Positions 12,501-40,000 of a DNA stretch of 40,000 nt are shown in pieces. The notes under the pieces are model-generated. The model was not told where the DNA came from, did not search any database, and saw only the letters and a program-made list of their open reading frames with translations. Each line of letters starts with the position of its first letter. Position 1 is the first letter of the stretch. The stretch lies in contig OZ242009.1 in NCBI GenBank assembly GCA_965204715.1, positions 1,720,013 to 1,760,012 on the forward strand, given 5' to 3'. This DNA comes from Dehalococcoidia bacterium (GTDB lineage Bacteria; Chloroflexota; Dehalococcoidia; Lucifugimonadales; UBA3495). A program made the position numbers and the translations under genes.

Positions 12501-15500
12501 AACAGTAACCTCATAGCTGTCCTTGGTCTCCTTGTCCAGCGCGGCCTTGGTCTTCAATTGACCGGTTGACGTGTCGATGTCAAAGACCAATGCCCCGGCG
12601 GTATCCAAGGAATAGGTCAGAGTATCGCCATTGTCCTGGTCGGTGGCCTCAACAAGGGCGCCAAAATCAGTATTGGTCGCGGTGTTCTCCGAAACCTCAC
12701 GGGTAGCGGTCTCGGCGTCGAAAGCCGGCTTGTCATTCGCGTCTGTCACGGTGATTGTGACGTCGATGGTGCCGGTGCCGCCTTTCTTGTCGTCCGCCTT
12801 CACCGTTACCGAGTAGCTGGTCTTGGTTCCCTCGTAATCATAGGTAACACCGGACTTTGTCTGTATCTGGCCGCTGGTGGAAACGATCTGGAAGGAGTCC
12901 TTATCCGTGCCTTCGAGGGTGTAGGTCAGGGTGTCGCTGTCAGCATCAGAGGCCGTGACCGGGCTGCCGATGTTCACACCCCCACCCGTGTTCTCTGCAA
13001 CTTGACGGTCCGCATTGGTTGCACCGAAGTCGGGCGCTCGGTTAGTTCCTGACCGGACCGCCTGGGTCGTTGTGGCCTGGGCGGTCTTGCCCGGACCTTG
13101 AGGGTCGGTGTATGTCACGGTGGCCCGCAGGGAATACCCCATTTCCGCATCGGAGGGGGAGTAGGAGTCGGAGTCAGTCCCGATGTTGGTCCAGGTGGCG
13201 CCGTCATTTGACTTGGCCCACTGCCAAGCCTTCCCGGTAGCGCTGCCGTCCGGATCGGTCAAGGTGGCGGTGATTTGGGCGCGGGCCGGGGGCTGGTTGG
13301 TGGAGAGGGTGACAGTCCCCGGCTCGTCCACATTGGTTAAGGTGATGGTCACCGGCTTGGTGGCGGTGCCTCCGTTGCTGTCATCGGCCTTGACCGTAAC
13401 CGAGTAGCTGGACTTGGCCTCGTAGTCATAAGTCTGCCCGGCCTTGGTCTTGATCTGGCCACTGGAACTGTCGATGTCAAAGGAATCTTTGTCTGTGCCC
13501 TCCAGGGAGTAAGTCAAAGTGTCATCGTCCGGGTCGTCGGCCGTAACCACATCACCGATATCTTGGCCCGCCTCCGTGTTTTCCGGGAAGCTGCGGGTCT
13601 CTGACTCAGTAGAGAACGTAGGCGGGTCGTTGGCATCGGTAACGGTGATGGTGACGGTGATGGTAGCGTCGGCGTCTTCATTCGCGTCAGCAGTACCGTC
13701 ATCGGCCTTGCCGTCCTTAACCGAAACAGTAACCTCATAGCTGGACTTGGTCTCCTTGTCCAGCGCGGACTTGGTCTTCAACTGCCCCGTGGATGTGTCT
13801 ATGCCGAAATCGGATGCGTCTGTCCCCCCAAGCGTGTAGGTCAACGTGGCTCCGGCGTCCGGGTCCGTGGCCGCAACCGGAGGGCCGATGTTGGTATTGG
13901 CCGCGGTATTCTCGGCGATGGACCGTGTTGCGGTGTTGGAGCCGAAAGCCGGCGGTTCGTTTACGTTGGTGAGGTTGATGGTCACCGGCTTGGTGGCGGT
14001 GCCGCCGTTGCTGTCATCGGCCTTGACCGTAACCGAGTAGCTGGACTTGGCCTCGTAGTTATAGGTCACGCCTGCCTTAGTTTGTATCTGGCCGGTGCCA
14101 GTAACAATCTTGAAGGAATCCTTGTCTGTCCCCTCCAGGGTGTAAGTCAATCTAGCGCCAGTGTCAGTATCCGTGGCCGTGACCGGGCTGCCGATGTCGG
14201 TATCGGCCGGTGAGTTTTCTGGGACGCTAAAGGTCAGCGTCCCGGCAGCGAAAGTCGGCGCGTCATTCGCGTCTGTCACGGTGATGGTGACGTCGATGGT
14301 ATCGGTGCCGCCGTTCTTGTCGTCCGCCTTCACCGTTACCGAGTAGCTCGGGTCGGTCTCATAGTCATAGGTCGCGCCAGTCTTTGTTTGTATCTGGCCG
14401 CTGGTGGAAACTATCTCGAATGAACCCGCGTCCGTTCCTTCAAGGGTATAGGTCAGGGTGTGGTTGTCGTCATCCGTGGCCGTAACTGGAGCGCCGACGC
14501 TGTGACCTACAGGCGCATCTTCAGCGAACTCACGGGTGGTAGTAGCCCCGCCGAACTCCGGCGCGCGGTTCGACCCTGCGCCGACCGCCTGCGTTGTTGT
14601 GGCCTGAGCGGTCTTGTTCGAGCCGTGGCCATCGGTGTATGTCGCCGTGGCCCGCAGGGAATACCCTATGTCTCCGTCCACCGGGGTGTAGGAGCCTGAG
14701 TCCGTCCCCACATCGTGCCAGGTGTTCCCGTCATTGGACCTCTGCCACTGCCAGGTGGTGCCGGAGATGCTGCCGTCGGGGTCGGCCAGGGTGGCGGTGA
14801 TTTGGGCGCGGGCCTTGGGCTGGCTGGGCGAAAGAGTGACTGTCCCCGCCTCGTCCAGGTTGGTCAAGGAGATGGTTACGTTTTGGGTGGCATCTACCAC
14901 CGCGTCCACATTACCGTCGGCGTCTTTGCTATCGCGGACCGACACAGTTACTGAGTAACTGGACTTGACCTCGTAGTCATAAGTCTGCCCCGTCTTGGTC
15001 TGGATCTGGCCGCTGGCACCGACAATGGTGAAGGAACCTGCATCCGTCCCGCCAAGGCTATAGGTCAGGGTGTCGCCGGTGTCCGCGTCAGTGGCGGACA
15101 CCGGGATGCCGACGTTGTGGACTCCGGTGGTGTTCTCAGGGAAGGAACGTGCCCCGGTCTCGGTGGACGGGAACTCGGGCTCGCTGTTGATAGGACCTTC
15201 GATGTTGATGGTTACCGTGATCCTGTCATCCACATCATCGATGTCGTAGTCGCCGTTGTCGTCCTTGCCGTCGGCGACCAATACCGTCACCGTGTAGCTG
15301 GACCTGTTCGTGTCCAGCGCCCCGCTGACAGACAACTGTCCAGTGTACTCGCTGATGGCGAATGGCAGGGTGGCGGCGTCCGGCAGGCTGTAGGTCAGAG
15401 AGGCGTCTTGATCCGGGTCGGTGGCTGTAACCGGGCCGCCGACTGGGTCGTTCAGTTCGGCGTCGTGCTCGACCTTGCGGGTAGCCGTCCCCCCCTCATC

Positions 15501-17195: not shown

Positions 17196-17432
17196 GGGAC
17201 ACCACCTCACTGCCACCCCACGTCAAGGTCCCAGATGAATCAGTTAACCGACAGGCACTTCATCGCGGCGACGACGCCGGGGCCGGTCCCGGCCATGCCA
17301 GGTCAGACCTCCCCCTGCACACCTGAACTGATAGCCCGGATTCACGTCAAGGCGCCCTGGCAGGCTGCCTTGGGGCCAAGCCCGCGCCACCTCCAGCCAG
17401 AGTAATCCAGAAGTTACAAGGGTAATTTTGAC

Positions 17433-17460
17433 GTTATAGCATAAGATGATACAGATTCAA
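17433..17460 (-). promoter_or_regulatory. Candidate sigma70-type promoter upstream of the giant surface-protein gene
   Basis: On the minus strand the sequence reads TTGAAT (17460-17455), a 16-nt spacer, then TATAAC (17438-17433). It sits in the only AT-rich patch of the 5' region, about 240 nt upstream of the start codon and at the truncated end of the IS701-like remnant. Confidence 0.3.
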
Positions 17461-18283
17461 CTATTACGTAAAGGTAATTGGAGCAATTTAACAATGCCCC
17501 TCTTGGGTTTGCGGGGACGCCCGAGTCCCTGATACTCCCCACTGGTCCAAGCTGGCTCCAGCGGCCAGACCGTGAAGCCCGCCGGAACGTCCGGGACGTA
17601 ACGTTTCCCCAAGGCCGAAAGCCCCTCCCGGAAGGACGGAAATACCCCGAAGGCGGCATCCCCGGCAACCCATCCGGCCTTCAGATGGCCGCGCTCCAAG
17701 GCCTGCTTCAGCATCGCCAAGGTCAATTCTGTCTTGGACCGGTAGTCACGAGTCTCATCAGGCACTCCTGCCGCCGCACACCGCTCCGGGTCCGAGGTCC
17801 AACTCTCCGGTAGATAGAGCCACCTGTCCACCAGCGCCCGGCCCAAGGGACTGACGTAGGCCAGAAACATCCCGGCCTGGCAGTTGGCCACCTTGCCCAG
17901 CCCGCCGCAGTACTGGCAGGCCACCCCCGCCGATTTCCTCCCCTGCTTGGGGAAGTCGCTGCCGTCCAAAACCCACACCGCCTCGGGTTCACTAGCCTGG
18001 GAGCCAGGTATTCCTGCAACCTACCGATGACCGTGTCATCGGACCAACGGGCCTCGGTGAGAAATCGCTGCATTGACCGGGCCCGGATGCCCACCGATTC
18101 CGGGAGATTCTCGGCGTTGCGCCGTTCCTGGGTCTGCACCAAGAGAGCCTGGAGATAGTTCCGGCTGTGCTCCCGCCATTGCTTGCGGCCGAAAGAGGCA
18201 GCAAAGAAGGCGTGAAATTTCTGAAAGCTGTCGTAGACCCGCTCGAAGCTCGCCGCATCCATCACCCATACCGCCACCATCAT
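17457..18283 (-). pseudogene. IS701-family DDE transposase remnant (frameshifted, 3'-truncated)
   Basis: The N-terminal part runs from the ATG at 18283 ('MMVAVWVMDAASFERVYDSFQKFHAFFAASFGRKQWREHSRNYLQALLVQTQERRNAENLPESVG...RFLTEARWSDDTV'). It continues after a frame change near 17980-18000 with 'WVLDGSDFPKQGRKSAGVACQYCGGLGKVANCQAGMFLAYVSPLGRALVDRWLYLPESW', the hallmark IS701 DDE region. The total is only about 275 codons, so the C-terminal third is missing. Confidence 0.7.
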
Positions 18284-18322
18284 CTGACCAGCTATTCCAT
18301 CTACAACCCGTCGTTGTAGTCC

Positions 18323-19496
18323 TAAACCAAAGCCAAGGTGAAATGCGCAGAGTAGTGGGGCAAATTGAGGCCGTAACTGGTTAGCTGACCTCAGGAGTTG
18401 GGAGGTGTTGCTGATGGGTGCGAGAGAGAAGGACCTCAGGCGGCGGATGATTCTGGCGCCTGCGCCCCGGGAGCGGGAGCGTTGGTACGCCATGTTGCTC
18501 TTGGCCCAGGGTTGGACGGCGGCGGCCACGGCGGAAGCGCTGGAGCGGGACCCCCACACCATCGGACGCTGGGCGCCGGCCTTCGGCGAGGGAGGGCCTG
18601 CGGCCCTGCTGTTCGATCAGACCGGCGGTTCCCCCAGCCCTTGACCAAGCGCAGCAGACGGAGTTGAAAGGGGCAGTGCAACTGCCGCCGTCATGGTCAG
18701 GCATGGAAATGGCCAACTGGTACTGGAAAGTGGCGCGGCAGTTTGTTGCGGAACGCTTTGGTATCAGCCTGTGTCGCAGCAGTTGTCTGAACTATCTGCA
18801 CCGCTTGGGATTCGCTTTCAAGCGTCCCAGGAAGCGGTTGGTCAAAGCGAATGAGTCTAAGCGGCAAGCCTTTGTGGCGGAGTATGCCGCCTTTGGGGAC
18901 CAGTCGGGGCGCGCTGGCGGAAAGGCATTCTTTGCCGGTGGGGCCCACTTCCGGGCCGGCGCCGGGTTGCGGGGCAAGTGGGTGTTGAGGGAAGAGCCGG
19001 CATTGGCGGACTCCACCAGCTCCAAGCACAGGGAGAAGGCCGGCTGCTACCCGGTGGTGTGCCTGGAAACCGGCGGGGCGGAGTGGATGGAAGTGGAGGG
19101 CAACAGCACTCCGGGACCCCGGTTGCCTTCCTGGAACGGTTGCGGGGGAGGCACGGCGGGCGTCTGAACGTGATCTGGGACAATGCGCCGGCCCATCGCG
19201 GCGAGGCGCTGCGGGCGTACCTGTGGACGCCTGACCTGAACCTGGGGCTGGTAAACCTGCCGGGCTACAGTCCGGACTTCAACGCAGAGGAGGCCACCGG
19301 CAATCTGTGCCTGGGGACCAGGGAGGCGGTACGGGCACGGGCCGGCGGCTTCCTGGGCGGGTCCGGCTAACCGGAAGGACGGGGTGAGACGGCGCTGCCG
19401 GACAGTGCTGCAATCGAGGGCTGAGGCGCTCCTGCAAGATTCCCAGCCCAATTCCAGCCTTCCGGCAAATGCACATCCCACCTTGGCTTTGGTTTA
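18323..19496 (+). mobile_element. IS630-family insertion sequence (1,170 bp, 18325-19494) with intact terminal inverted repeats and TA target duplication
   Basis: The left end is AACCAAAGCCAAGGTGAAATGCGCA. The reverse complement of the right end is AACCAAAGCCAAGGTGGGATGTGCATTT. This gives a 16-bp perfect TIR. TA sits on both flanks (18323-24 and 19495-96), as expected for IS630/Tc1-mariner elements. The insertion lies 40 bp upstream of the IS701-like transposase start. Confidence 0.8.
18405..19370 (+). pseudogene. IS630-family transposase, inactivated (two frame changes, catalytic-site substitution, internal deletion)
   Basis: - **HTH part, frame 3:** 'RERWYAMLLLAQGWTAAATAEALERDPHTIGRW', ending at a stop at 18644.
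- **Middle part, frame 1:** 'ANWYWKVARQFVAERFGISLCRSSCLNYLHRLGFAFKRPRKRLVKA'.
- **C-terminal part, frame 3:** 'LNVIWDNAPAHRGEALRAYL...LVNLPGYSPDFNAEEA'.
- **Catalytic site:** the place where family members carry the first catalytic Asp ('F.DE..F') reads 'FFAGGAHF'. Confidence 0.75.
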
Positions 19497-21311: not shown

Positions 21312-24300
21312 TCACCGGTCTCGTTCAAACCTGCCGTATGCCGGTTTTTCCAGAATCCGGGCAATTACCGAGTCTCTCTCATCCCTGTCCACAGTTCGCT
21401 TCTGGTCCGAAGGCTCGTACAGGTAAAGCGGATCGGGAATCCATCTGGGACTGGCTGCCATTTCGACGATCGGGACCATGAAGGCCCAATCGTTGGCGAG
21501 GTCGATCCACTGGCCGTCAATCTTCAGGTCTTCCACGTCGATTGCGTCGAACAGGTACTTCCTGAAGGTCCTCAGGTGTTGCCACACATTGCTCCGCCAG
21601 GACCGCGGCCTATTGAAGTCGGCGGGGTAGGACGCTTCTTTGTCCAGTCTGAGCATGGACCCTACCGTGGCATCGGCTCCGGCTTCGTATTCGGCTCGGA
21701 CCCGGTCGAGGACATGCCTGCCCAGCAGGGCGTCATCGGCGTCAAGGGTGACTATCACCGTGTCCGGGTCGTCGCAGAACCTGGTGACGGCGTTCCAGGT
21801 GTTGAAGAGGGCGCCCCGGCGGGTGGAGTTCCGAATAATGGTGACCCTGTCTGCGTGGTCCCTGAACAGCACTTCGGCATAGTCCCCGAACCCGTTGGTC
21901 GAAGCGTCGTCCACCACGACCGCGCCCCAGTCCCGGCAGTCCTGAACAGCGAGCGACTCGAAGCAGCGCCGGAACCTGCCCGGGTCAACGTTGCGCCCGC
22001 AAATCACGAAGACGAAGGTTTCGCTCCGCTTGGGACCGGCCCAGTCCACCGCGGAGCCGGCCAGTTCCACCCTGTCGAGCTGGACCGGCGCAACGTAACC
22101 CCGTTCTACGCTGTCCATGATGTCCGCTATGCCATCGTCATCGGATTTCCGGTCGTTGGGAACATGGATGAAGGCGGTTGCCGGGTCCCCGCCGCGGTAC
22201 GAGCGGTGTTCGCCGGACGCGATGAAGCGGTCGAACGCCCGGTGCCAGGGCATCGCAAACCGGCCGCCCTCAAGCTCGTTGGCGACGGGCAGCGCCGACT
22301 GGAGCTTCCGCCTGTCGAAGAGGCATCCCCTGACCTCGACGCGCCAGTCCCCTCGCGGCCCCTCGCAGGTGTAGGGTTGGGGGCCGGAGCGGCAGATGCT
22401 GAGGGAAACGAAGAGGGCCCTGGGGTCATTGCGGAGGACATCCGCCATCTCGTCAAGGTAGTTGTGCTGCCGGTCCGCCCTGGCGATGATGAGATCGCTG
22501 TCCACTTGGAGGACGTAGTCGCCGGTGCACGCATCGAACCCGTACAGGGTGGCGAATAGCTGCTGTCCGTTGGCCGAGTGAGTTTCTTCCGACTCCACCC
22601 CGAACCACCTTGCAAAGGTGCTGCGAATGGTCTCGGGGTCCTCAGGGGCGTAGACCACCCGGTCCACCAAGCCGTCCCCGACCAGACGTTCCATGGCGGC
22701 GTGGTGCGCCGCGGGATCGGGAGAGTCGTACTGGCGGGCGAAGGGTCCCATGAACGGGTCGACCACGATCACCCGCTCCGCGAACCTGACCGGTCCCTCG
22801 AGTTGCCCGACCTGGTGGCGGACCAGCCTCTCGATGGAGCGCCACTCCATCAGGCAAGTCTTTATAAGCAAGGACACCTTCGGCCTCGGGTCGCCCGGGG
22901 GCAAGGCAGTTGAGGGTTTGAGCTTGAACACGAGGTGCTCGGACGCCGGGCGCAAGTGACGCGAATCGGTCCCGTCCAGTTCCACGACTTTGTCGACGTG
23001 GAGCCCCGCACTCTCGAAGGCTCGCAGGTAGGTCGCGAAGCTCCTGTGGACCTCCACCCGCCGGTTGCCGTTCATGCTGAGTGTCTTGGTGTACTGGAAC
23101 GTGTGCTCGTACTCATGATCACGGGGCAGATGCTTTTCCGCCAACTCGGTCGATACGACCGGCAGGTAGAACGGGTTGCACACCGCCACGAACACCGTCC
23201 CGTCCCCGGCGGCCAGCCGGCGCAAATCCTGGAGGATGGCTTCGAACTCCTCTGAACCGGGAATGGTGCACAGGACCCGGCTGCACACCACGGCCTGGAA
23301 ACCAGTCGACCTCGACCTGAGTTCGTCGAGCAACTCCCGGCCGCCGTACCTGGCTGCGCTGACGTGGCCGAGGCACCTCGCGACCATGGCGGGGTCCGGG
23401 TCGTATCCTGTTGCCTGGATCCCGCATTCGGACAACCGCTCCGCCAGCCGGCCGTCTCCGCAGCCGTAGTCGAGGACGGTTTCGGGACGTTCCGCGAGGA
23501 CCAGGTCCGCCATCGGGCGTTGGAACAGTTCGTCCCAGCCCCTCGGGTCGAGCGCGTTCAGGAACTGCCCGAATCCGGCCAGTTCCGGCAGGTCCGGGTC
23601 GGTCAGGGATCTCGTCATCAACCGCTTGAGGTCGGACCGGAAGTGAAAACGGTAGGTCAGAAACGCCCGCCGGCACATCTGCTCGAACTCCCGGTCGTTT
23701 GCCGGGACTATGTCCGACCCGTAGTCGATGAGCTTCAGCCCGGATGAGGTCACCAGAAGGTTGTCGGGATGGATATTCCGGCACGCGATTCCCGCCTCCC
23801 GGCACTCCCGGAGCAGGGTCAGTATCTCCCCGAGGCGCCCACCCGAGTACTTCGTACCGGCCTCATACGGGTGCACGGTCACCACCTGCCGGCCCCGGCT
23901 CCGGACTTCCCGGATGTCCAGCAGTGTGCTGTATCCTCCCAGTTTCCCGGCAAGGGACCGGAGGAACGCCACCTGGCGCTCCATGCTGCGGGGCTTCCAG
24001 GAATGGAAGTACTTGTACGCCAACTGCCCGTCGGTCAGCACGGCGCCCTCCTCACCCACTCCCAGGCAGGTGAGAGGGCCGGTCCCGAACTCCTCCCGGA
24101 CGAAGGTCTCGGCGGTCCTGGCGAGGGCTTCTGCGGGCAGCCTGACGTTGGCCCGGTACTGCTCCACGGTCTGGCGTAACTTCCTGAAGTAGTCCCTGAT
24201 TGGAGCGGCATCCTCTTCCGACAGCCGGTTGACGAACTCCTCAATCCGCCCCTCGCTGTAGACCGATGCCAGGGTCTCCGTGAAATGCTTGAGTGCTGCG

Positions 24301-26531
24301 ACCGGTGCTTCGTACCGCAGAGACGCCAGCCACCAGGGAATCGGCTCCCCGAATGAGTCCCGCTCGTAGAACCGTCTGAGGGCGCGGATGAGTCCGGTGA
24401 CCCTGATGGCGTTGAGCTCAAAGTCCCGCAATCGCTCGCGGAGGTGGTCCTGATACAACGCGGCCGCCTCGCCGATTTCATAGTCGTCAAAGTCGAGCAG
24501 GCTACGGCCGTGGGGTTCCCTGCCCTGTGCCTGTCGCCGCTGCGCCTTTCTCAGGAGCATGTCATGCAGGGCGGAGTAGAGGGCGTGTCCCCGGATGTCC
24601 TGCGCCAGTGTGCCGAAGCCGGGGTCTGAGCCTGGACTCGCCGACCTGTCCTGCCGGACCGGGAGCGGGGCCTGGACCACCCTGCGCCCCCCGATGTGCC
24701 TGTTCAGGAGGCACCAGACCATGTCGCTGCGCCGGGTGTCGGCTCCCTCGATTTCAGCGGCGGCGTTGGGGAACTCCCGCAGGGCGTCCACGTCGAACAC
24801 CAGTGTGTTCGGTCCCCTTCTCACCGACGGCACGAGTCCGGCGGCAACATCGGCTCCCCCTGGCTGCACGAGAGGCCGGAATACCTGCCTGCCCGCCAGG
24901 ATTTCAGGCAGGCGTGACACCATCTCCTTTAACACGTCCGCTGCTCGCAGCCCTGTCCGGCCTGCCTCGTACCAGAAGGGCGACTCCAGGTGGCCGGTCT
25001 CCGACCGGGAGAGGTCGTAGTAATAGTCGCGCATGTCCAACCGTGCGAGCCTGTTTTCGCCGCTTCGGTCAGGATAGGGTGTGTCCGGTCCGAGTCCGGT
25101 CAACTGCTGTAGGTTGTGGTGGAGGTCGACAAGCTGGGTGCGTATGCAGCCCGGGGCTGGCAGGGGAGGGTCGCCCGTGACCTCCCCTATGACAACCTCG
25201 TTGCCGGTATCCTTCAGCTTCATGATTGCGGGCACGTAGTCGACTTCACTGGGCTGGATATGGCCGTCCCCCCCGTAGACCAGGCTGTCCAGACGTACAT
25301 CGTCATCGAGAATCCACACCACCGCCCCGGGCCGCGGCTTGGCCTCGAGATAGAGGTAGTGCTGGAGCATGGTCCGGCTTGCGGCGATGCTCTTGCGCCC
25401 GGATAGCTGGTCCGGGGTGGCGGACAGCATTCCTGCCTCGACATCTGAAGCCTGGTCTTCCAGCGTCTTCGCGGTCACGTCGAGCCCTCGTCCCAGGGCA
25501 TCGCCGACAGCCTCCCTGAGGGCCTTCCTGGAGGGACCGCCCGGCCCTCCGTTTTCGAGCAGGACCACCTTCAGGGTGACGTCGTCTCGCCAAGCGATCC
25601 TGGTGACCAAGTCATCCATGAGCCGGGAGATTCCGGCGACTTCAGGCGATGTGATTGCTCCGACGACCAGATCCAAGCTCTCGCCGGGCACAGGATTGTC
25701 CCTGGCCGGCCCGGAAACCGGAGGGATGTCCATGGCTGCGTCGGCGTCACAGCCGAACATCTCCCGGCTCCTCCTGAGGAACGCGGCGCGTTGTTCCCCG
25801 GACATGCGCCCGTTGTACTTGCGAAAGAAGCGCGTGAGCCCCAGGCATTTCGCTTCGCTGCCGGGCGTGGATAGCCGCAGGCGGTCCTCCTCGGCGTAGT
25901 GGTGTACCAGGTGTTCCGGGAGGGAGCCGAACCTCACCGAGCGGAGGTCGGCGAGCCGGATGCAGACGTCCCGGTCCGTGGTGCTGGCAAGCCCCTCGTC
26001 GAACCCTCCGGCTTCGAGCAGTATTTGGAGCCTCACGAACAGGTTGGAGCCCTGTATGTGGGGGTTTCTTATAAGAAGTTCGTCCACGTCGAGGCGGTCC
26101 GGTATATCGAGGTATCCTCCACTGTCGTCGAAGCTGCTGTGGTAAACGATCCCGGCGGCGACCATGTCCAGCCCTTGCCGCACCACCGCTTCTTCACACC
26201 GCTCCAGATAGACCGGTTCCCACATGTCGTCGTCATCCAGAGAAGCCACGAAGACCTCCGGCTCGACGGACTGCAGCCAGGAGAGTGCGGAGTTGCATGC
26301 GCCGGAGAGTCCCGGTGTCCGGCGGTTTTCCAGGTAGACCGTGGTCACCCCGCCGGCGCCGAAGCCGGCAATAACCTCCTTGTTGGCGAACCGCATCTGC
26401 GAACCGGAATCGTCCACGACCAACAGGTAGTCGGGAGGCCGCGTCTGGACTTCGACAGAAGCCAGCGCCCGGTTGGCCAGAAGCCCGGGCCTGCTGTGTG
26501 TGGCGATCACCGCGGCTATCTTAATCATCAC
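21312..26531 (-). CDS. 1,739-aa multidomain glycan-assembly protein: GT2 - GT-A-like - kinase-like - SAM methyltransferase - GT-A-like - GT2
   Basis: - **N-terminal GT2:** 'IAAVIATHSRPGLLANRALASVEVQTRPPDYLLVVDDSG...SLDDDDMWEP'.
- **Second GT-A-like module:** 'VVWILDDDVRLD'.
- **Kinase-like fold (~23640-24080):** 'GVGEEGAVLTDGQLAYKYF...CRNIHPDNLLVTSSGLKLIDYGSD'.
- **Class-I methyltransferase (~23160-23490):** 'VLDYGCGDGRLAERL...FQAVVCSRVL'.
- **Third GT-like module:** 'YVLQVDSDLII'.
- **C-terminal GT2:** 'FVFVICGRNV...LAVQDCRDWGAVVVDDASTNG...IVTLDADDALLG'. Confidence 0.85.
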   Translation of the reverse strand: MMIKIAAVIATHSRPGLLANRALASVEVQTRPPDYLLVVDDSGSQMRFANKEVIAGFGAGGVTTVYLENRRTPGLSGACNSALSWLQSVEPEVFVASLDDDDMWEPVYLERCEEAVVRQGLDMVAAGIVYHSSFDDSGGYLDIPDRLDVDELLIRNPHIQGSNLFVRLQILLEAGGFDEGLASTTDRDVCIRLADLRSVRFGSLPEHLVHHYAEEDRLRLSTPGSEAKCLGLTRFFRKYNGRMSGEQRAAFLRRSREMFGCDADAAMDIPPVSGPARDNPVPGESLDLVVGAITSPEVAGISRLMDDLVTRIAWRDDVTLKVVLLENGGPGGPSRKALREAVGDALGRGLDVTAKTLEDQASDVEAGMLSATPDQLSGRKSIAASRTMLQHYLYLEAKPRPGAVVWILDDDVRLDSLVYGGDGHIQPSEVDYVPAIMKLKDTGNEVVIGEVTGDPPLPAPGCIRTQLVDLHHNLQQLTGLGPDTPYPDRSGENRLARLDMRDYYYDLSRSETGHLESPFWYEAGRTGLRAADVLKEMVSRLPEILAGRQVFRPLVQPGGADVAAGLVPSVRRGPNTLVFDVDALREFPNAAAEIEGADTRRSDMVWCLLNRHIGGRRVVQAPLPVRQDRSASPGSDPGFGTLAQDIRGHALYSALHDMLLRKAQRRQAQGREPHGRSLLDFDDYEIGEAAALYQDHLRERLRDFELNAIRVTGLIRALRRFYERDSFGEPIPWWLASLRYEAPVAALKHFTETLASVYSEGRIEEFVNRLSEEDAAPIRDYFRKLRQTVEQYRANVRLPAEALARTAETFVREEFGTGPLTCLGVGEEGAVLTDGQLAYKYFHSWKPRSMERQVAFLRSLAGKLGGYSTLLDIREVRSRGRQVVTVHPYEAGTKYSGGRLGEILTLLRECREAGIACRNIHPDNLLVTSSGLKLIDYGSDIVPANDREFEQMCRRAFLTYRFHFRSDLKRLMTRSLTDPDLPELAGFGQFLNALDPRGWDELFQRPMADLVLAERPETVLDYGCGDGRLAERLSECGIQATGYDPDPAMVARCLGHVSAARYGGRELLDELRSRSTGFQAVVCSRVLCTIPGSEEFEAILQDLRRLAAGDGTVFVAVCNPFYLPVVSTELAEKHLPRDHEYEHTFQYTKTLSMNGNRRVEVHRSFATYLRAFESAGLHVDKVVELDGTDSRHLRPASEHLVFKLKPSTALPPGDPRPKVSLLIKTCLMEWRSIERLVRHQVGQLEGPVRFAERVIVVDPFMGPFARQYDSPDPAAHHAAMERLVGDGLVDRVVYAPEDPETIRSTFARWFGVESEETHSANGQQLFATLYGFDACTGDYVLQVDSDLIIARADRQHNYLDEMADVLRNDPRALFVSLSICRSGPQPYTCEGPRGDWRVEVRGCLFDRRKLQSALPVANELEGGRFAMPWHRAFDRFIASGEHRSYRGGDPATAFIHVPNDRKSDDDGIADIMDSVERGYVAPVQLDRVELAGSAVDWAGPKRSETFVFVICGRNVDPGRFRRCFESLAVQDCRDWGAVVVDDASTNGFGDYAEVLFRDHADRVTIIRNSTRRGALFNTWNAVTRFCDDPDTVIVTLDADDALLGRHVLDRVRAEYEAGADATVGSMLRLDKEASYPADFNRPRSWRSNVWQHLRTFRKYLFDAIDVEDLKIDGQWIDLANDWAFMVPIVEMAASPRWIPDPLYLYEPSDQKRTVDRDERDSVIARILEKPAYGRFERDR

Positions 26532-34860: not shown

Positions 34861-37800
34861 ATGAGCAAACTAGCGCGCGCAGAATTCGACAAGGCCCGCA
34901 TTCTACAGACGACGCAGAATGACGCTGGCCGCATCCGCCGAGGGGTCGCGGCAGCGAAACAGCGGTTGGTCCGAGCCGGAGTCCGATGGCCTTTCGAACT
35001 TATGCAGAACGCTCACGACGCAGGGCCGCGTGACGACAACCAGCGGGTTGAAGTCGCTTTCGTCCTGGGCGATGACCAGCTTGTAGTTTCCCATACTGGA
35101 AAACCTTTTGTGGCTCAGGAACTTGCCGCCCTGCTGTCTGGTGGATCAAGCAAAGAGTTTGACAGTGAAGAGACCACTGGGCGCTTTGGCACTGGATTCC
35201 TTGTGACACACGCTCTGTCAACGCGAGTTGATGTTGATGGTGTGCTAAACACAGAGGAAGGCCCTGAAGTTTTCCACATCGAACTTGAACGCGACGGAGA
35301 CGAGGATTCCATAGCAAGAAATATAGAGCAAGCCAACCAAGCTCTGGAACGCGCCCAATCTGTTTCAGCAGCCGCCATTGCTGACAAACCTACCGCATCG
35401 CTCGTTTATCACCTTGTTAATGGCGAGGTAGCCAAGCGTGGATTGAGCCGCTTGGAACAATCGCTACCGTACCTCTATGCAACCTGCAGCAAACTCGGCT
35501 GTGTCCGTATCGAGCTATTTGAGGATGTATTCCTCTTTGAGCCGGTAGCATCGTGCGAGACCGTGGTCGGCGACTTCATTATCAGTGAAGCTCATATCGC
35601 GATTTCATCATCTGATGCAACGAAGAACCTCGTAGCAGTGCGCGTAGGATATAAGGGCGGTCAATCGGCCCTCCTTGCGGTGTTGGAACGTAGGGGCTTG
35701 GACAAGTATCAAGTTTTGCTTCCCAGAGAAGATTTCTCCCGGATATTCGTGACTTTTCCAATAGCGGAGACCGACTTCTTGCCTTTCAACATTATCTTGG
35801 ATGGCAAATTTGCACCCGACCAGGAGCGCGATGGCATTGCCATGCACGATGCTGATAAAGCATTGGTTGATGAAGCTCTTTCGGCGTTTCCAACCCTCGT
35901 TCAACACGCCGTGGAATCAGGTTGGCTTGACGCCCATAACCTAGCGCACCTAGCGGTTCCAGATAGACCCTTGAGCGGCGAAAGCGAAAGCGGCGAAATG
36001 GAATGGTGGCAAGAGGCACTTCTACGCGTAGCGGAACAAACCGCTGCCATGTCCATCGTTAAAACTGAATCGGGTTTGCTTCCTGCTTTGAACAATCGGG
36101 ACGGGCTGTCAGTATCTTTTCTCGTTCCGGCGATTGATGCGGATGCACCCGAGTGTGTGGATTACGATACCGTCCACAAGATCGCTAGTGACATTGAGGC
36201 TCTCCACATTCCCAGCGAAGAAGTTGCCCAGTCATGGGGGGCAATAGCCCGCCAATGGGCTCGCATTGGAGCACCGATTGAACGATTGGGGTTGGATGAA
36301 CTGGCAACTTGGCTCAAAGATAAGGCCGGTTCTGTTGACGACCTACCCGTTCAAGGGGACCACTTTGCGTGGCTGGCAAACCTGTTTCTGCTGGCGGCAG
36401 ATATGAATGACCAAAACGTTCGTGATGTGGTCAACGGTCTCTTGCCTGACCAATACGGAAAATTCCGGAACACCGAGGAAGAATACCTTTACGCGGATGG
36501 CGGGATTTCCGAGGAAATCAAGGACATATCCTCTGAGTTGGGTGAGGATATGCGCACCAAACTTCTGCACGATGACATGGCAAGGGCTTTAGCGGCTCCG
36601 GGTTTTGAGAATGCGAACACGTTGATTCGAGGGCTACTCGACAAAATGGACGACGGTGAATACACCGAATCCAAGGCAATCGATAGATTGCTTGACAGCC
36701 TTGCAACTCGCCTGCCACATGACAGCGAGTTCGATGACGATACTGGTTTGTCCGCATTGCGTGCCTCGGCCCGGTTAGTAGCGTACCTCGTGGGAAGCGG
36801 AGATGATGCCAGGGTCAGGAGATGCCCCTTACTGACTGCTGCCGATAATGTGGTTCACCTTACCGGAAATCAACAGATCCTAGCCCCGAAACTGCATTGG
36901 CCGGAATCGGAACAGCCCTACGCAGGTCTCTACACGTCAAGGCGCCTGCTCTCTGATCGTTACTGTGATGATGCCAACTTAACTCAAGCCTTAGACGAGC
37001 TTATCGCGGTTCATCTGGTTATCGCCGCACCTCTGTTTTACGGGAGGCGCGCCGAGATTGAGGATGTCAATTTGCTACGGGAAATGTCGCGCGGTGTGCA
37101 GGAAACAGCCGGAGTGACCGTCAGAGATACTTCGTTTGGGCAGATCGCGTTCCTGGCGACGGACTTGGTAAACCGTTGTGCCCAAGACATTGACCTGGCC
37201 AAGCTACTGCTGGATTTCGTTCTCAACGTGGCGGCGCCCGAGGATCAAAACTGGCGCAAAACAGAGAGCGTGTTGGGCAATCGTTTGAGTGAAAGGGTCA
37301 ACTTGTCCCTCTCGGGAGCGACCTGGCCGGCGGAGCTAAAAGTTCGGGCATGGATACCAGTCCGTTCCGCCGATGATGAGGGGAATGAGCGAATAACGCC
37401 AATGCCAGCGAATGAATCTCACTTGCGAGAGATCCTTGACCCGGCATGGCTGAAAGGCAACCGTGATGCGGTGGACTTGCTGCACCAGGCTTTCGGTTTC
37501 AGAGAGCTAACGCTGATGCTGGATAGTTTGGATAGTGAGATTGAGAACGATTTGGTTGAATTACTGCAAGACCCTGAACTAGTTAGAGTGGCTGCGAACC
37601 AACCCGAAGCTGTAAGGTTTGCGTCGGAACTGGAATCAGCAGACGTCACGCTGGACTCAGTACGCGAGTTTGTACGCGAAATACGAGAGCAAAAGCGTAA
37701 AACTCAAGACATTCAGGAACTTGGGTTTGGAGTTGAGACTTTGGTGAAGGAGAGCTTGGAGTTGGCTGGCTTCTCCGTGCGTCGCACCGGTATCGGCTCT

Positions 37801-38241
37801 GATTTCGAGATCGCTATGGAACTCGGCGACGTAGCTAACTTGCAACTGACTAAGGGCGAGCAAAGCTGGTTGGTGGAAGTAAAGGCCACCCGTGAGCAAA
37901 AGGTGGTCCGTATGTCAGATACCCAAGCCAAGACAGCCGCAAAGGAGAAGGAACGATACTTGCTTTGCGTCGTGCCGGTAGAACATGAAACTGGCGCTCT
38001 AGATCTAGATGATGTTCTGGCTAGTATGAGGTTTGTGGCCGATGTAGGTGGCCGCGTGATTCCACTGTGCGACAATTTGGGCGATTTCGAGGAACTGCGA
38101 GACGACATTACGGCGGGCACATCGTCAGGTGTCCAGCTGGAAATCTCTCCTGGTCCCGCGCGGATTCGTGTTAACCGTTCCGTTTGGGAAAACGACGGTT
38201 TTCCACTTGATGATCTGGCTGAGCACTTATCGCCACGATAA
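34861..38241 (+). CDS. Sacsin/MORC-type GHKL ATPase with C-terminal DUF3883 (restriction-endonuclease-like) domain, 1,126 aa
   Basis: The ATG at 34861 is preceded by GGAG. The N-terminal Bergerat-fold motifs are 'PFELMQNAHDAG' (34994-35023) and 'GRFGTGFLVTH'. The long middle region has no recognised family. The C-terminus is 'GFSVRRTGIGSDFEIAMELG...SWLVEVKATREQKVVRMSDTQAKTAAKEKERYLLCVV' (~37720-37990), a D...E-x-K core as in DUF3883. Confidence 0.8.
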   Translation: MSKLARAEFDKARILQTTQNDAGRIRRGVAAAKQRLVRAGVRWPFELMQNAHDAGPRDDNQRVEVAFVLGDDQLVVSHTGKPFVAQELAALLSGGSSKEFDSEETTGRFGTGFLVTHALSTRVDVDGVLNTEEGPEVFHIELERDGDEDSIARNIEQANQALERAQSVSAAAIADKPTASLVYHLVNGEVAKRGLSRLEQSLPYLYATCSKLGCVRIELFEDVFLFEPVASCETVVGDFIISEAHIAISSSDATKNLVAVRVGYKGGQSALLAVLERRGLDKYQVLLPREDFSRIFVTFPIAETDFLPFNIILDGKFAPDQERDGIAMHDADKALVDEALSAFPTLVQHAVESGWLDAHNLAHLAVPDRPLSGESESGEMEWWQEALLRVAEQTAAMSIVKTESGLLPALNNRDGLSVSFLVPAIDADAPECVDYDTVHKIASDIEALHIPSEEVAQSWGAIARQWARIGAPIERLGLDELATWLKDKAGSVDDLPVQGDHFAWLANLFLLAADMNDQNVRDVVNGLLPDQYGKFRNTEEEYLYADGGISEEIKDISSELGEDMRTKLLHDDMARALAAPGFENANTLIRGLLDKMDDGEYTESKAIDRLLDSLATRLPHDSEFDDDTGLSALRASARLVAYLVGSGDDARVRRCPLLTAADNVVHLTGNQQILAPKLHWPESEQPYAGLYTSRRLLSDRYCDDANLTQALDELIAVHLVIAAPLFYGRRAEIEDVNLLREMSRGVQETAGVTVRDTSFGQIAFLATDLVNRCAQDIDLAKLLLDFVLNVAAPEDQNWRKTESVLGNRLSERVNLSLSGATWPAELKVRAWIPVRSADDEGNERITPMPANESHLREILDPAWLKGNRDAVDLLHQAFGFRELTLMLDSLDSEIENDLVELLQDPELVRVAANQPEAVRFASELESADVTLDSVREFVREIREQKRKTQDIQELGFGVETLVKESLELAGFSVRRTGIGSDFEIAMELGDVANLQLTKGEQSWLVEVKATREQKVVRMSDTQAKTAAKEKERYLLCVVPVEHETGALDLDDVLASMRFVADVGGRVIPLCDNLGDFEELRDDITAGTSSGVQLEISPGPARIRVNRSVWENDGFPLDDLAEHLSPR

Positions 38242-38555
38242 ACCTACATCGCGATAAAGATCATCCAGCAACTCCTTGCGGTTGGCGGCACTCTCCGCCG
38301 TTGGGTGGCTGACCGTAGCGGGGAAGGGCAACAGTGCCAAAAGCCTGCCCTCCTTCAGAGGACCGCGACAGTCTCGGGGGAACTCGCATATCCTCAGTGC
38401 TACGTGCTGGAAACTGGAAATAGGACCATGGGTTAGCCGCCACGGAGCAATAGGCGTAGGCATTCTTTCTCCATCGGCGTCTGGATCCCACCGATTACGG
38501 CAACGCCCGCATCGCGCATTGAACAAGCGAGATCATAGGTCTTGAGGATGAGGTC
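38227..38555 (-). pseudogene. Decayed DprA/Smf-like (SLOG-superfamily) gene fragment
   Basis: Three minus-strand frames each carry a piece of one protein: 'DLACSMRDAGVAVIGGIQTPMEKECLRLLLRGG*', then 'PMVLFPVSST*', then 'FPRDCRGPLKEGRLLALLPFPATVSHPTAESAANRKELLDDLY'. From memory these resemble the C-terminal half of DprA-like proteins ('G.HSP.E.ECL..LLRG..P.i.cPa...' ... 'GRLL.LSPF......T...A..RN'). The fragment has no N-terminal half and overlaps the GHKL gene's last 15 nt. Confidence 0.4.
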
Positions 38556-38676
38556 TCAAAGGCAGTGGGACGAACAAAAGAAGCCGGTAAGAGGCCCTTC
38601 CAATAGTTGAGGGTCGCCCTTCGTTTTGAATGGCGGGGGTTGTTCCATATCCGACTATCCACCGCCGGTTCAATTG

Positions 38677-39519
38677 CTAAGCGAAAGGTAACAAACCTTT
38701 TGTCCATTCGATAATCTTGATTGCAGAAGCAATAACAGGGAGGGCCTTTGCAGCCTGCCAGGCTGTACCCAGCCGTCTCCTGATACCCGTTGGCTGGCCC
38801 GGTATCGGAATGGCGTCGAATTCTCTCCCGAGGATTTCGACTGACATTCGTGCCACGGTTTCCGCATCATTGATTCCCCGGTCCAGGGAGAACAACCCGA
38901 CCCTGTTCGTCACATCCTGATGCGTGTTGGGGAAGAAACGCCTGGGGGCAGACACCATTTCGCGGTGCAAAGCAACTGCTCCGTCACCATCGTCAGTAGC
39001 GGAGCCGAGTCGCAGGTCGAGGGGGAACACTGGCTTTCCATGGCTAATCATATCCACCCCGGCGGAGTACGTGCCCTTGCCACCACCGATGGCGAGCATT
39101 GCATCGGCCTTTTCGATCATGGCCTTCCGGTACTCGCCGCCAGTAAACACCTCTCGCCGTATGGGACAAATTTCCACGACGTTCCTCTGCTGAAGATTCC
39201 TGAGCAGGCGTAGATTGGCATCGTCAATCTTGGACTCCGGCGCTGCGTCGGACATAACCACCTTGGCGTATGGCCGAGGAGCTTCGGTAGTGGTCTCGGC
39301 ATAGGTCTCGATCTCACGCAGCGCCAGCCAGTCGAAAACGTGGGGTGCGCCGCGTTCGTCCTTGGTAGACTCTTCATCTCCAGCGAGGACCACAAGTCCG
39401 CCGCCTTGTCTCAATATGTCGCCGGTGAAGCTTCGGACAAACTCGAAAGCGATGTCCAACTTGTCAGCGGGACACTGGAGTCTGGCGCTGCCGGAAAGCA
39501 TTATGAATTTGCCGTTCAT
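38677..39519 (-). CDS. SLOG-domain (LOG/DprA-like Rossmannoid) protein, putative nucleotide-signal sensor/effector
   Basis: 'MNGKFIMLSGSARLQCPADKLDIAFEFVRSFTGDILRQGGGLVVLAGDE' ... 'KADAMLAIGGGKGTYSAG' shows the N-terminal 'ISGS' strand and glycine-rich 'GGG.GT' loop typical of LOG/SLOG folds. The C-terminal ~30 aa form an amphipathic/hydrophobic helix, 'AWQAAKALPVIASAIKIIEW'. The gene starts 15 nt after the upstream nucleotidyltransferase stop. Confidence 0.6.
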   Translation of the reverse strand: MNGKFIMLSGSARLQCPADKLDIAFEFVRSFTGDILRQGGGLVVLAGDEESTKDERGAPHVFDWLALREIETYAETTTEAPRPYAKVVMSDAAPESKIDDANLRLLRNLQQRNVVEICPIRREVFTGGEYRKAMIEKADAMLAIGGGKGTYSAGVDMISHGKPVFPLDLRLGSATDDGDGAVALHREMVSAPRRFFPNTHQDVTNRVGLFSLDRGINDAETVARMSVEILGREFDAIPIPGQPTGIRRRLGTAWQAAKALPVIASAIKIIEWTKGLLPFA

Positions 39520-39534
39520 CGGTGAATGCTGGCC

Positions 39535-40000
39535 TCAGTTCCCCTCGCAGAACATCCTGTTGAAATCTGCCTTGGAGTTGCAGGAGTTTAACTTGCCCCG
39601 CATCTGACCAAAGTGGGTTGAGGCCCGTCTGCGTGCTCTGGAGTCTGCCGGTCCCAGATATTCGTCCACGTATCTTGATTGCCCTGAGCGGTCTGTGATT
39701 GGCCTCATCACGGCAGTCATGGAGTGGGTTAGCAAGTGATGAAGCATAGACTTCGGGTCCTGGGAGCCTTGATAGTTCCCAAATGCGTCAATCGCTAGAG
39801 ACTCCATGTGGTACCCACTAATCTTCCAATCCTGGCGGGTAATGAAGCAATCCGCCATAGCCTTAGCGAGTTTGATCACAGGCACGACTCTACCGTCCCT
39901 GGCCGAATTGACTCTGGCGAGCTTATTGGCAAAGTCATCAGGTCGAGCCACGTTGCTCCATTGTGTGCTCCCCGGATTGGCAATGCGAACACCGCCTGAA
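39535..40000 (-). CDS. SMODS/CD-NTase-like nucleotidyltransferase, C-terminal part (5' end outside window)
   Basis: The minus-strand frame stays open through base 40000, upstream of the track's GTG at 39951 ('...SGGVRIANPGSTQWSNVARPDD...'). The pattern 'I.NPGS.QW....P..F...L...N...DGRVVPVIKLAKAM........ISGYHMESLAIDAF' matches the post-catalytic helical region of CBASS-type/minimal nucleotidyltransferases. The catalytic GS...D.D region would lie beyond the window. Confidence 0.5.
   Translation of the reverse strand, partial: SGGVRIANPGSTQWSNVARPDDFANKLARVNSARDGRVVPVIKLAKAMADCFITRQDWKISGYHMESLAIDAFGNYQGSQDPKSMLHHLLTHSMTAVMRPITDRSGQSRYVDEYLGPADSRARRRASTHFGQMRGKLNSCNSKADFNRMFCEGN

Follow-up and report, generated by a model that had tools for sequence, protein, structure and literature searches.

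A predicted compact CBASS operon with a type IV-clade cyclase and a SLOG-only partner in a Dehalococcoidia genome

The 40,000-nucleotide stretch of a Dehalococcoidia bacterium genome analysed here (assembly GCA_965204715.1, contig OZ242009.1, positions 1,720,013 to 1,760,012; called the window below) ends in two adjoining genes on its minus strand, the 3' part of a nucleotidyltransferase gene and an intact gene for a stand-alone SLOG protein of the TPALS family. We read the two genes as a compact operon of a cyclic oligonucleotide-based antiphage signalling system (CBASS), in which a cyclase of the type IV clade would work without the deazaguanylation apparatus of that type and a SLOG-only protein would act as receptor and effector. 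The probability of this overall reading is put at roughly 0.65. A CBASS operon is of a known kind; the combination of a SLOG-only partner with a type IV-clade cyclase that lacks the deazaguanylation apparatus is an uncharacterised variant.

The cyclase and its TPALS partner

The visible part of the cyclase gene (39535–40000, minus strand, stop codon at 39535–39537) corresponds to residues 127–280 of a 280-residue CBASS cGAS/DncV-like nucleotidyltransferase (CD-NTase) of the SMODS family. The 154 C-terminal residues encoded by 39535–39999 are free of internal stops, the frame runs off the window edge, and the N-terminal half with the GS...DxD motif falls past position 40000. The fragment matches the PADLOC oligonucleotide-cyclase profile PDLC00790 with an E value of 2.3e-50 (profile positions 158–301 of 310) and the NCBIfam family NF041117, CBASS_cyclase_b ('CBASS oligonucleotide cyclase'), with an E value of 5e-31. 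A Pfam scan of the fragment by itself gave no match; its identity comes from the PADLOC and NCBIfam profiles and from the full-length relatives, on which the SMODS family PF18144 is found. The fragment is confirmed by these comparisons as the C-terminal part of a predicted CBASS oligonucleotide cyclase.

A full-length protein of 280 residues (P0272) differs from the window's fragment by one residue and clears the equivalog cut-off of NF041117 (226 bits vs 200). The contig that encodes it (L025) shows no synonymous differences from the window DNA across the visible cyclase stretch. The cyclase of a further locus (L001), also of 280 residues and with the SMODS domain (PF18144), is 91.6% identical to the fragment. 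In P0272 the motif FGGS...LSDVD lines up with D94/D96, the metal-binding motif of the Rhizobiales CdnD, an enzyme of experimentally shown activity, and GGS...DVD is kept in all ten full-length relatives that were aligned. Catalytic motifs upstream of the visible part, on which the first-pass annotation of the stretch had made its assignment depend, are therefore present in the proxies (P0272 and all the relatives), the DNA of the window itself ending before them.

A spacer of 15 nt, read from the sequence (39520–39534, minus strand), lies between the stop codon of the cyclase and the first codon of the SLOG gene, which places the two genes in one operon. The second gene is an intact open reading frame (38677–39519, minus strand, ATG at 39519) whose product, a stand-alone SLOG protein of the TPALS type with 280 residues, presumably acts as signal receptor and effector. 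Residues 2–230 match the Pfam family PF18178 (Cap17-like_N, 'ATP nucleosidase Cap17-like, N-terminal', the TPALS SLOG family) with an E value of 1.3e-37. The nucleotide-binding loop of the SLOG domain, GGGKGT, is formed by residues 145–150 (39070–39087, minus strand; the reverse complement reads ggtggtggcaagggcacg), and its glycines G145, G146, G147 and G149 are invariant, distant stand-alone TPALS proteins included. The AlphaFold model of the protein (41 sequences) has a mean predicted local distance difference test score (pLDDT) of 84 and is confident across residues 1–240. The solved folds nearest to this model are the SLOG domain of ThsA, the ADP-ribose-binding SLOG domain of TRPM2, DprA and LOG. 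A sequence search of the solved structures found no related entry (the best, a LOG protein, has an E value of 0.67), and an exact-sequence look-up of the SLOG protein returned no record.

The protein covers only positions 5–235 of the 506-position PADLOC profile for Cap17-type effectors, and it stops at residue 280 without any match to the purine nucleoside phosphorylase (PNP) domain, PF01048. Among the 395 homologues found, the best 120 are 277–294 residues long (nearly all 279–282) and 67–96% identical to the window's protein. A search of 1.84 billion cluster representatives returned 260 relatives only, which fall into three groups: stand-alone TPALS proteins of ~280 residues (35–57% identical), Cap17-type proteins of ~510 residues (30–37%) and TIR-type proteins of ~385 residues (25–33%). 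A truncated Cap17 was considered and ruled out by the uniform length of the best 120 of the 395 homologues, and by the downstream 436 bp, which are the remains of a different gene and not of a PNP domain. The TPALS-only protein is a stable family, and the available excerpts of the literature mentioning PF18178 contain no description of the stand-alone form.

Against diverged relatives, the ratio of nonsynonymous to synonymous substitution rates (dN/dS) is 0.08–0.27 for the cyclase and 0.12–0.26 for the TPALS domain, and both genes are thus under purifying selection. The reading frames and the PADLOC, NCBIfam and Pfam profiles agree with the first-pass annotation, which had seen a partial CD-NTase/SMODS gene followed 15 nt on by a SLOG protein with the GGGKGT loop; its view of a SMODS synthetase and a SLOG sensor as a nucleotide second-messenger conflict system is likewise supported, by the cyclase profiles and PF18178.

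The scan of the genome collection gave matches only in metagenome-assembled genomes (MAGs) of Dehalococcoidia/Chloroflexi (17 of 17 matches), and the metagenome scan in 5 loci only; about 20 distinct related loci were compared. The cyclase and TPALS genes are tightly adjacent in every one of them except L013, where a gap of ~1.9 kb is found. The genes flanking the pair differ between loci, and no further gene conserved around it was found in those surveyed. In two complete-chromosome MAGs (L023, 6001–6836, and L024, 6001–6836) the TPALS gene matches in two frames; these are either frameshift pseudogenes or assembly errors.

Relation to type IV CBASS and to the neighbouring QueC and DpdA genes

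Type IV CBASS is the Cap9-Cap10-CdnD system, in which the QueC-like Cap9 conjugates the N-terminus of CdnD to 7-amido-7-deazaguanine and Cap10, which resembles a tRNA-guanine transglycosylase (TGT), then holds it; the cyclase extension M(G/S)G(G/S)GG is reported as universal and essential in type IV, and deletion of the N-terminal motif abolishes defence in the characterised system (Wassarman et al. 2025, doi 10.1101/2025.04.06.647259).

The sole significant solved relative of the window's cyclase is the type IV Rhizobiales CdnD (9ntn/9nto, E value 1e-58 over ~255 residues). Plasmid homologues of the cyclase number four in all, and each of the four lies inside a Cap9-Cap10-cyclase operon. As for the small membrane proteins beside the plasmid operons, one has a weak, sub-threshold match to SLATT families and the other matches no family. 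When the cyclase is compared with those from four type IV operons, identity is 37–53%, and with that of L030 it is 51–53%. The latter is a true type IV operon, consisting of Cap9 (184 residues), Cap10 (332 residues), a cyclase (297 residues, with the start MSGSSG) and a TPALS protein (279 residues) that is 48% identical to the window's. A second Cap9-Cap10-cyclase-TPALS operon, with a TPALS protein 54% identical to the window's, was found in L032/L033. A stand-alone TPALS partner thus ends these type IV operons as well, while the other type IV operons surveyed carry small membrane proteins in its place, and NF041117 is passed both by P0272 and by the type IV cyclases. By its sequence the cyclase falls in the type IV-associated clade, and these comparisons show the putative operon of the window to derive from, or to be sister to, the Cap9-Cap10-cyclase-TPALS type IV operons.

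The window operon differs from type IV CBASS in that it has neither adjacent Cap9 and Cap10 nor the M(G/S)G(G/S)GG extension. The type IV cyclases of L026, L027 and L030 begin with MGGSGG or MSGSSG, whereas the start MP(N/D)D.FN is found in 10 of the 10 aligned full-length relatives (P0272, L001 and 8 others). The Gly-rich tail is absent from the cyclase lineage, as read from these relatives, the window itself being without the N-terminus. The N-terminus of the lineage is 17–28 residues shorter than those of the four type IV cyclases compared, and in L001 a stop codon stands two codons upstream of the start. The alignment of the cyclase with CdnD opens at CdnD residue 41; the cyclase therefore has no counterpart of the NDG tail or of R15, S18 and R22, which contact Cap10. 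The type IV-style cyclase N-terminus considered in the first-pass annotation is accordingly not borne by these relatives. No Cap2/3, HORMA/TRIP13 or Cap9/10 genes flank the pair in the window, whose upstream side lies beyond the edge, or in the surveyed Dehalococcoidia-type loci. With no Gly-rich tail and no Cap9/Cap10, the operon is a two-gene type I CBASS by architecture, and the type I style is our best reading of it.

The QueC gene of the window (33856–34644, plus strand) encodes a 262-residue protein that scores 189 bits with TIGR00364 (cut-off 150) and has the canonical motifs SGGxDS, YxQxHxxE, VPxRN, YPDC and CxxCxxC. Its solved relatives are the canonical QueC proteins 2pg3 and 3bl5 at an E value of 1e-29; Cap9 is matched at 3e-8, at the C-terminal end only. 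Cap9 is a minimal protein of ~185 residues, against 262 for the window's QueC, which is 23–25% identical to three Cap9 proteins. The TGT-family gene (28792–30474, plus strand) encodes a DUF6884-DpdA fusion of 560 residues, a DNA-guanine transglycosylase according to NF041059 DpdA (365 bits vs a cut-off of 200) and to its solved relative, the DNA-guanine transglycosylase 7ui4 (E value 4e-70). The search of solved structures with DpdA gave no match to the Cap10 chain, and BLASTP against three Cap10 proteins gave weak or insignificant values (0.045 to 3e-5); Cap10 is a remodelled TGT-like protein of about 330 residues, against 560 here. The DUF6884 part matches the PADLOC candidate family PDC-M57A (E value 3e-7).

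DpdA and QueC stand at the two ends of a co-directional run on the plus strand (28792–34644: DUF6884-DpdA, UvrD-like helicase, PD-(D/E)XK nuclease, QueC). The run resembles the Dpd DNA-modification system in its DpdA equivalog and canonical QueC, which enclose a helicase and a nuclease, and differs from it in the fusion of DpdA to an N-terminal DUF6884 and in that no DpdB or DpdC was recognised among the scanned open reading frames, to which the search was confined. These matches show QueC and DpdA to form a separate, predicted 7-deazaguanine DNA-modification module, and the whole of 28792–34644 resembles a minimal system of 7-deazaguanine DNA modification or restriction.

QueC lies 4.9 kb and DpdA 9–10.7 kb from the cyclase-TPALS pair, on the opposite strand and with the Tiamat defence gene TmtA between (34861–38241, plus strand; PADLOC PDLC03967, E value 4.6e-114; sacsin-type ATP-binding domain NF047352). 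TmtA is convergent with the operon, separates it from QueC and is not part of the system. Among the about 20 distinct loci, the window and L001 are the only ones with the QueC/DpdA module beside the pair; in L001 the gene order is the same (UvrD-like, PD-(D/E)XK, QueC, TmtA, then the pair). No Cap9, Cap10, QueC or DpdA homologues were found near the pair in the other surveyed Dehalococcoidia-type loci, L025 included. Since QueC is canonical, the TGT is a DpdA and the two do not co-occur with the pair beyond the window and L001, a functional link to the cyclase was rejected, and the evolutionary link remains. The CBASS pair is very probably unconnected to the local QueC and DpdA.

The first-pass annotation had given the distances and strands of the QueC and TGT genes correctly and had itself remarked on the canonical look of QueC. 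Of the type-IV-CBASS-like relationship that it proposed, the evolutionary part stands, through 9ntn, the plasmid operons, L030 and L032/L033. The local QueC and TGT as Cap9 and Cap10 do not, as the two are QueC and DpdA equivalogs, the cyclase lineage has no Gly-rich tail and the module adjoins the pair in the window and L001 alone.

Candidate output and rival explanations

The C-terminal tail of the TPALS protein (residues 246–280; 38680–38784, minus strand) is a basic hydrophobic helix, in which a variable linker is followed by the conserved KALPxIASAIKIIEWxxGLLPF and which carries a net positive charge. The helix is predicted over residues 246–276, with no confident packing on the SLOG domain (pLDDT 43–48). 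The dN/dS of the tail against diverged relatives is 0.09–0.23, a selective constraint as strong as that on the domain. Profile scans and the AlphaFold model agree with the earlier observation that the SLOG protein has no recognisable toxic domain and only a C-terminal helix, and the tail is the sole part of the protein that might serve as output. The Kyte-Doolittle maximum of the tail (over 19 residues; a value of 1.6 was applied as the transmembrane-helix threshold) ranges across the family from 0.98 to 1.74. In several other lineages the stand-alone TPALS proteins also have basic hydrophobic or amphipathic helices at the C-terminus, with sequences unrelated between the lineages; among the stand-alone proteins the hydrophobicity of the tail extends from 0.47, which is clearly sub-membrane, up to a transmembrane-grade 1.86 in L032.

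In the proposed mechanism the cyclase would make a cyclic oligonucleotide upon infection, and the TPALS domain would bind it, by analogy with the same role predicted for the TPALS domain of Cap17. Ligand binding would drive self-assembly of the TPALS protein, as in the helical assembly of ThsA (8btp), and the output would come from the clustered C-terminal helices, the likeliest route being that they attack or engage the membrane. The infected cell would thereby be stopped. We favour, with some reserve, the TPALS-only protein itself as the effector. In L030, where no other effector candidate was found in the flanks of the operon, it is the effector by elimination. That the protein represents an uncharacterised class of CBASS effector (a sensor with a 30-residue helix and signal-driven assembly), with a Dehalococcoidia cyclase working without deazaguanylation, is a possibility to which we give somewhat less than even odds, and a membrane-directed output through the tail is proposed tentatively, with the odds rather against it.

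A DprA-like SLOG gene follows the TPALS gene in part of the loci, as a third gene of the operon. It is intact in 9 distinct loci, in which it encodes 193–221 residues and starts within ~27 nt after the TPALS gene, and is absent from 10, which marks it as accessory. The intact copies match PF02481 (E value 4e-7), and the sole defence-family match is PADLOC PsyrA (E value 2e-13), which we take to be the antitoxin-side partner of the PsyrTA pair. In the window this gene is a pseudogene (38245–38648, minus strand) with two in-frame stops and frameshifts. The intact copies from L002, L006 and L007 match it by tblastn in three frames, with stops and combined E values of 2e-33 to 2e-40; the similarity is undetectable past about residue 132 of 193, and the end of TmtA is 3 nt away. 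The same lesions are carried by L001 and L025. In some loci the DprA-like gene shares its last 8 nt with a fourth gene of ~203 residues (L002, 9441–10052; L031, 6443–7051), a remnant of which is found in L025 (12030–12179). The product of the fourth gene has no Pfam, PADLOC or NCBIfam family match and no clear membrane segment, and is presumably soluble.

A conserved downstream membrane or SLATT partner was considered and dropped, as the downstream genes vary by locus and the fourth gene is soluble and without family match; no conserved SLATT or two-helix membrane gene was found near the pair in the surveyed loci. An upstream effector past the window end, which the first-pass annotation had thought possible, was dropped too, as the genes upstream of the cyclase differ by locus (a DUF5677 protein, toxin-antitoxin genes, a cluster of a PLD-helicase and an MmeI-type methyltransferase).

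In four loci (L002, L005, L006 and L025) the pair is directly preceded by genes for a PLD-SNF2 helicase (~1130–1170 residues) and an MmeI/Eco57I-type methyltransferase; three of these loci also have a PIN-domain gene there. The pair proteins of these loci are 69–99% identical to the window's, and such a helicase/methyltransferase cluster may be what adjoins the pair beyond position 40000. Just upstream of the type IV operon of L032 (1–2411; also in L033) are genes for an RNase T-type exonuclease and for another TPALS protein, which carries a fused domain that is TIR-like or nucleoside-deoxyribosyltransferase-like; a single cyclase may serve two TPALS receptors there.

Several points weigh against the reading of the pair as a working operon with a SLOG-only effector. 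The integrity of the cyclase is deduced from P0272, one residue different, and from the DNA of L025, with the active-site half beyond the window, and, with its third gene decayed, the window's copy of the system could be impaired. As deletion of the N-terminal motif kills type IV defence, a tail-less cyclase must be regulated otherwise. The Kyte-Doolittle maximum of the tail is 1.23 in the window, with a lineage median of 1.36, both under the 1.6 threshold, and its hydrophobic moment is modest (0.38); contact with another protein would explain the strong conservation of its sequence no less well than lipid binding would. In L032, given the TPALS-TIR-like protein upstream, the TPALS-only protein need not be the sole effector.

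In one rival explanation the TPALS-only protein is a sensor or adaptor and the killer is the DprA-like third gene, the fourth gene or a protein encoded elsewhere; the window copy, its third gene dead, would then be crippled. The lack of a catalytic or clear membrane-spanning domain in the TPALS protein fits this explanation, as does the highly conserved tail, which resembles a docking peptide; so do the placing of the third gene within ~27 nt in 9 loci, the overlap of the fourth with the third in some, and the additional TIR-like TPALS protein of L032. We nevertheless regard it as unlikely, for the pair is kept under purifying selection without the third gene (in 10 distinct loci and in the type IV operons L030 and L032), the PsyrA match of that gene, to a presumed antitoxin, suggests a regulatory and not a toxic role, the product of the fourth gene is soluble and without family match, and nothing else is conserved around the pair. 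An enzymatic SLOG domain, acting as a LOG-like nucleotide N-glycosidase or in the processing of NAD or ADP-ribose and so depleting a metabolite or processing the signal, is quite improbable. Its fold is related to that of the LOG phosphoribohydrolases, and the invariant R131 falls at the position of the Arg in the LOG 'RK' motif; however, the catalytic Glu of the LOG motif PGGxGTxxE is replaced by Ser152, at a position which is variable among the relatives, the same domain with the same motifs is the non-catalytic N-terminal domain of Cap17-type and TIR-type effectors, and the closest folds (ThsA, TRPM2) are ligand-binding SLOG domains.

The remaining explanation is a dispersed type IV CBASS, where the nearby QueC and TGT act in trans as Cap9 and Cap10 and the cyclase is licensed by deazaguanylation. 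The clade of the cyclase and the presence of both genes on the same island, 4.9 and 9–10.7 kb off, are what speaks for it. We consider it extremely improbable: QueC is canonical by equivalog score, length and motifs, the TGT is DpdA by equivalog and solved relative and has no detectable match to the Cap10 chain, both belong to an opposite-strand run that also includes a UvrD-like helicase and a PD-(D/E)XK nuclease, with Tiamat between it and the pair, in the cyclase lineage the Gly-rich acceptor tail is missing, as is part of the helix that binds Cap10, and no QueC, DpdA, Cap9 or Cap10 is near the pair in L025 or in any other surveyed Dehalococcoidia-type locus besides L001.

Known systems, island setting and significance

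Type I CBASS reportedly consists of two genes, cyclase and effector, in the classification of Millman et al. 2020. The window operon is like it in having a cyclase with one adjacent partner, both matched by PADLOC profiles (cyclase and effector, respectively), and unlike it in that the partner has no recognised effector domain, the cyclase is nearest to type IV enzymes and a DprA-like third gene is optional. Systems of SMODS, SLOG and SLATT proteins are said to have been predicted as conflict systems by Burroughs et al. 2015; the window shares with them a SMODS synthetase and a stand-alone SLOG protein, but no SLATT or two-helix membrane gene adjoins the pair in a conserved manner. ThsA, the SIR2-SLOG protein of type I Thoeris, is the best structural match to the TPALS model (6lhx, 7uxs, 8btp), although sequence identity is 12–16% and TM-scores are about 0.5. 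Its SLOG domain binds 3'cADPR, and the ligand-bound helical assembly (8btp) is a precedent for assembly-driven activation. Unlike the window's protein, ThsA has a SIR2 NADase output domain and receives its signal from a TIR protein and not from a CD-NTase. Cap17 is a TPALS-PNP ATP nucleosidase and a CBASS effector (Rousset et al. 2023, doi 10.1101/2023.01.24.525353). The window's protein has the TPALS N-terminal domain in common with the ~510-residue proteins of this architecture, while the PNP nucleosidase domain (~270 residues) is missing and a helix of ~30 residues is present instead.

At about 28 kb in the window the guanine-plus-cytosine content drops from 0.61–0.65 to 0.53–0.555. A tyrosine integrase gene (27036–28070, minus strand) and a small ribbon-helix-helix gene (28244–28525) are located at this drop, and the drop together with the integrase gene marks the boundary of an acquired defence island. 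The occurrence of the Dpd-like module, Tiamat and the CBASS pair in one acquired island is enough to account for their proximity. In L024 a TmtA-like gene (7116–10319, 42% identical) is found directly downstream of the pair and on the same strand, and the proximity of TmtA and the pair may exceed chance packing of the island. No tRNA genes were found in the whole window. Just outside the low-GC island, 21312–26531 (minus strand) encodes a 1739-residue protein with two glycosyltransferase family 2 regions and a methyltransferase domain. Further away, also on the minus strand, are a gene for a 3550-residue protein with cadherin repeats (18 matched stretches), bacterial Ig and fibronectin type III domains (6564–17216) and a DDE_5 transposase in two overlapping reading frames (17457–18562; 173 and 279 residues), which is probably frameshifted and dead.

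For annotation, the locus is a caution, as a canonical QueC and a DpdA beside a type IV-clade cyclase can mimic a type IV system. In at least one true type IV operon (L030) there is no effector candidate other than the TPALS-only partner, a protein without an enzymatic or clear membrane domain. The target to which N-terminal deazaguanylation attaches the cyclase, and the reason for this requirement, are left open by the type IV paper. A clade of tail-less cyclases, kept under purifying selection beside the same partner, offers a ready-made comparison for this question. If the reading of the window operon is true, comparison with its Cap9/Cap10-dependent sisters L030 and L032 could show what the N-terminal 7-deazaguanine licenses.

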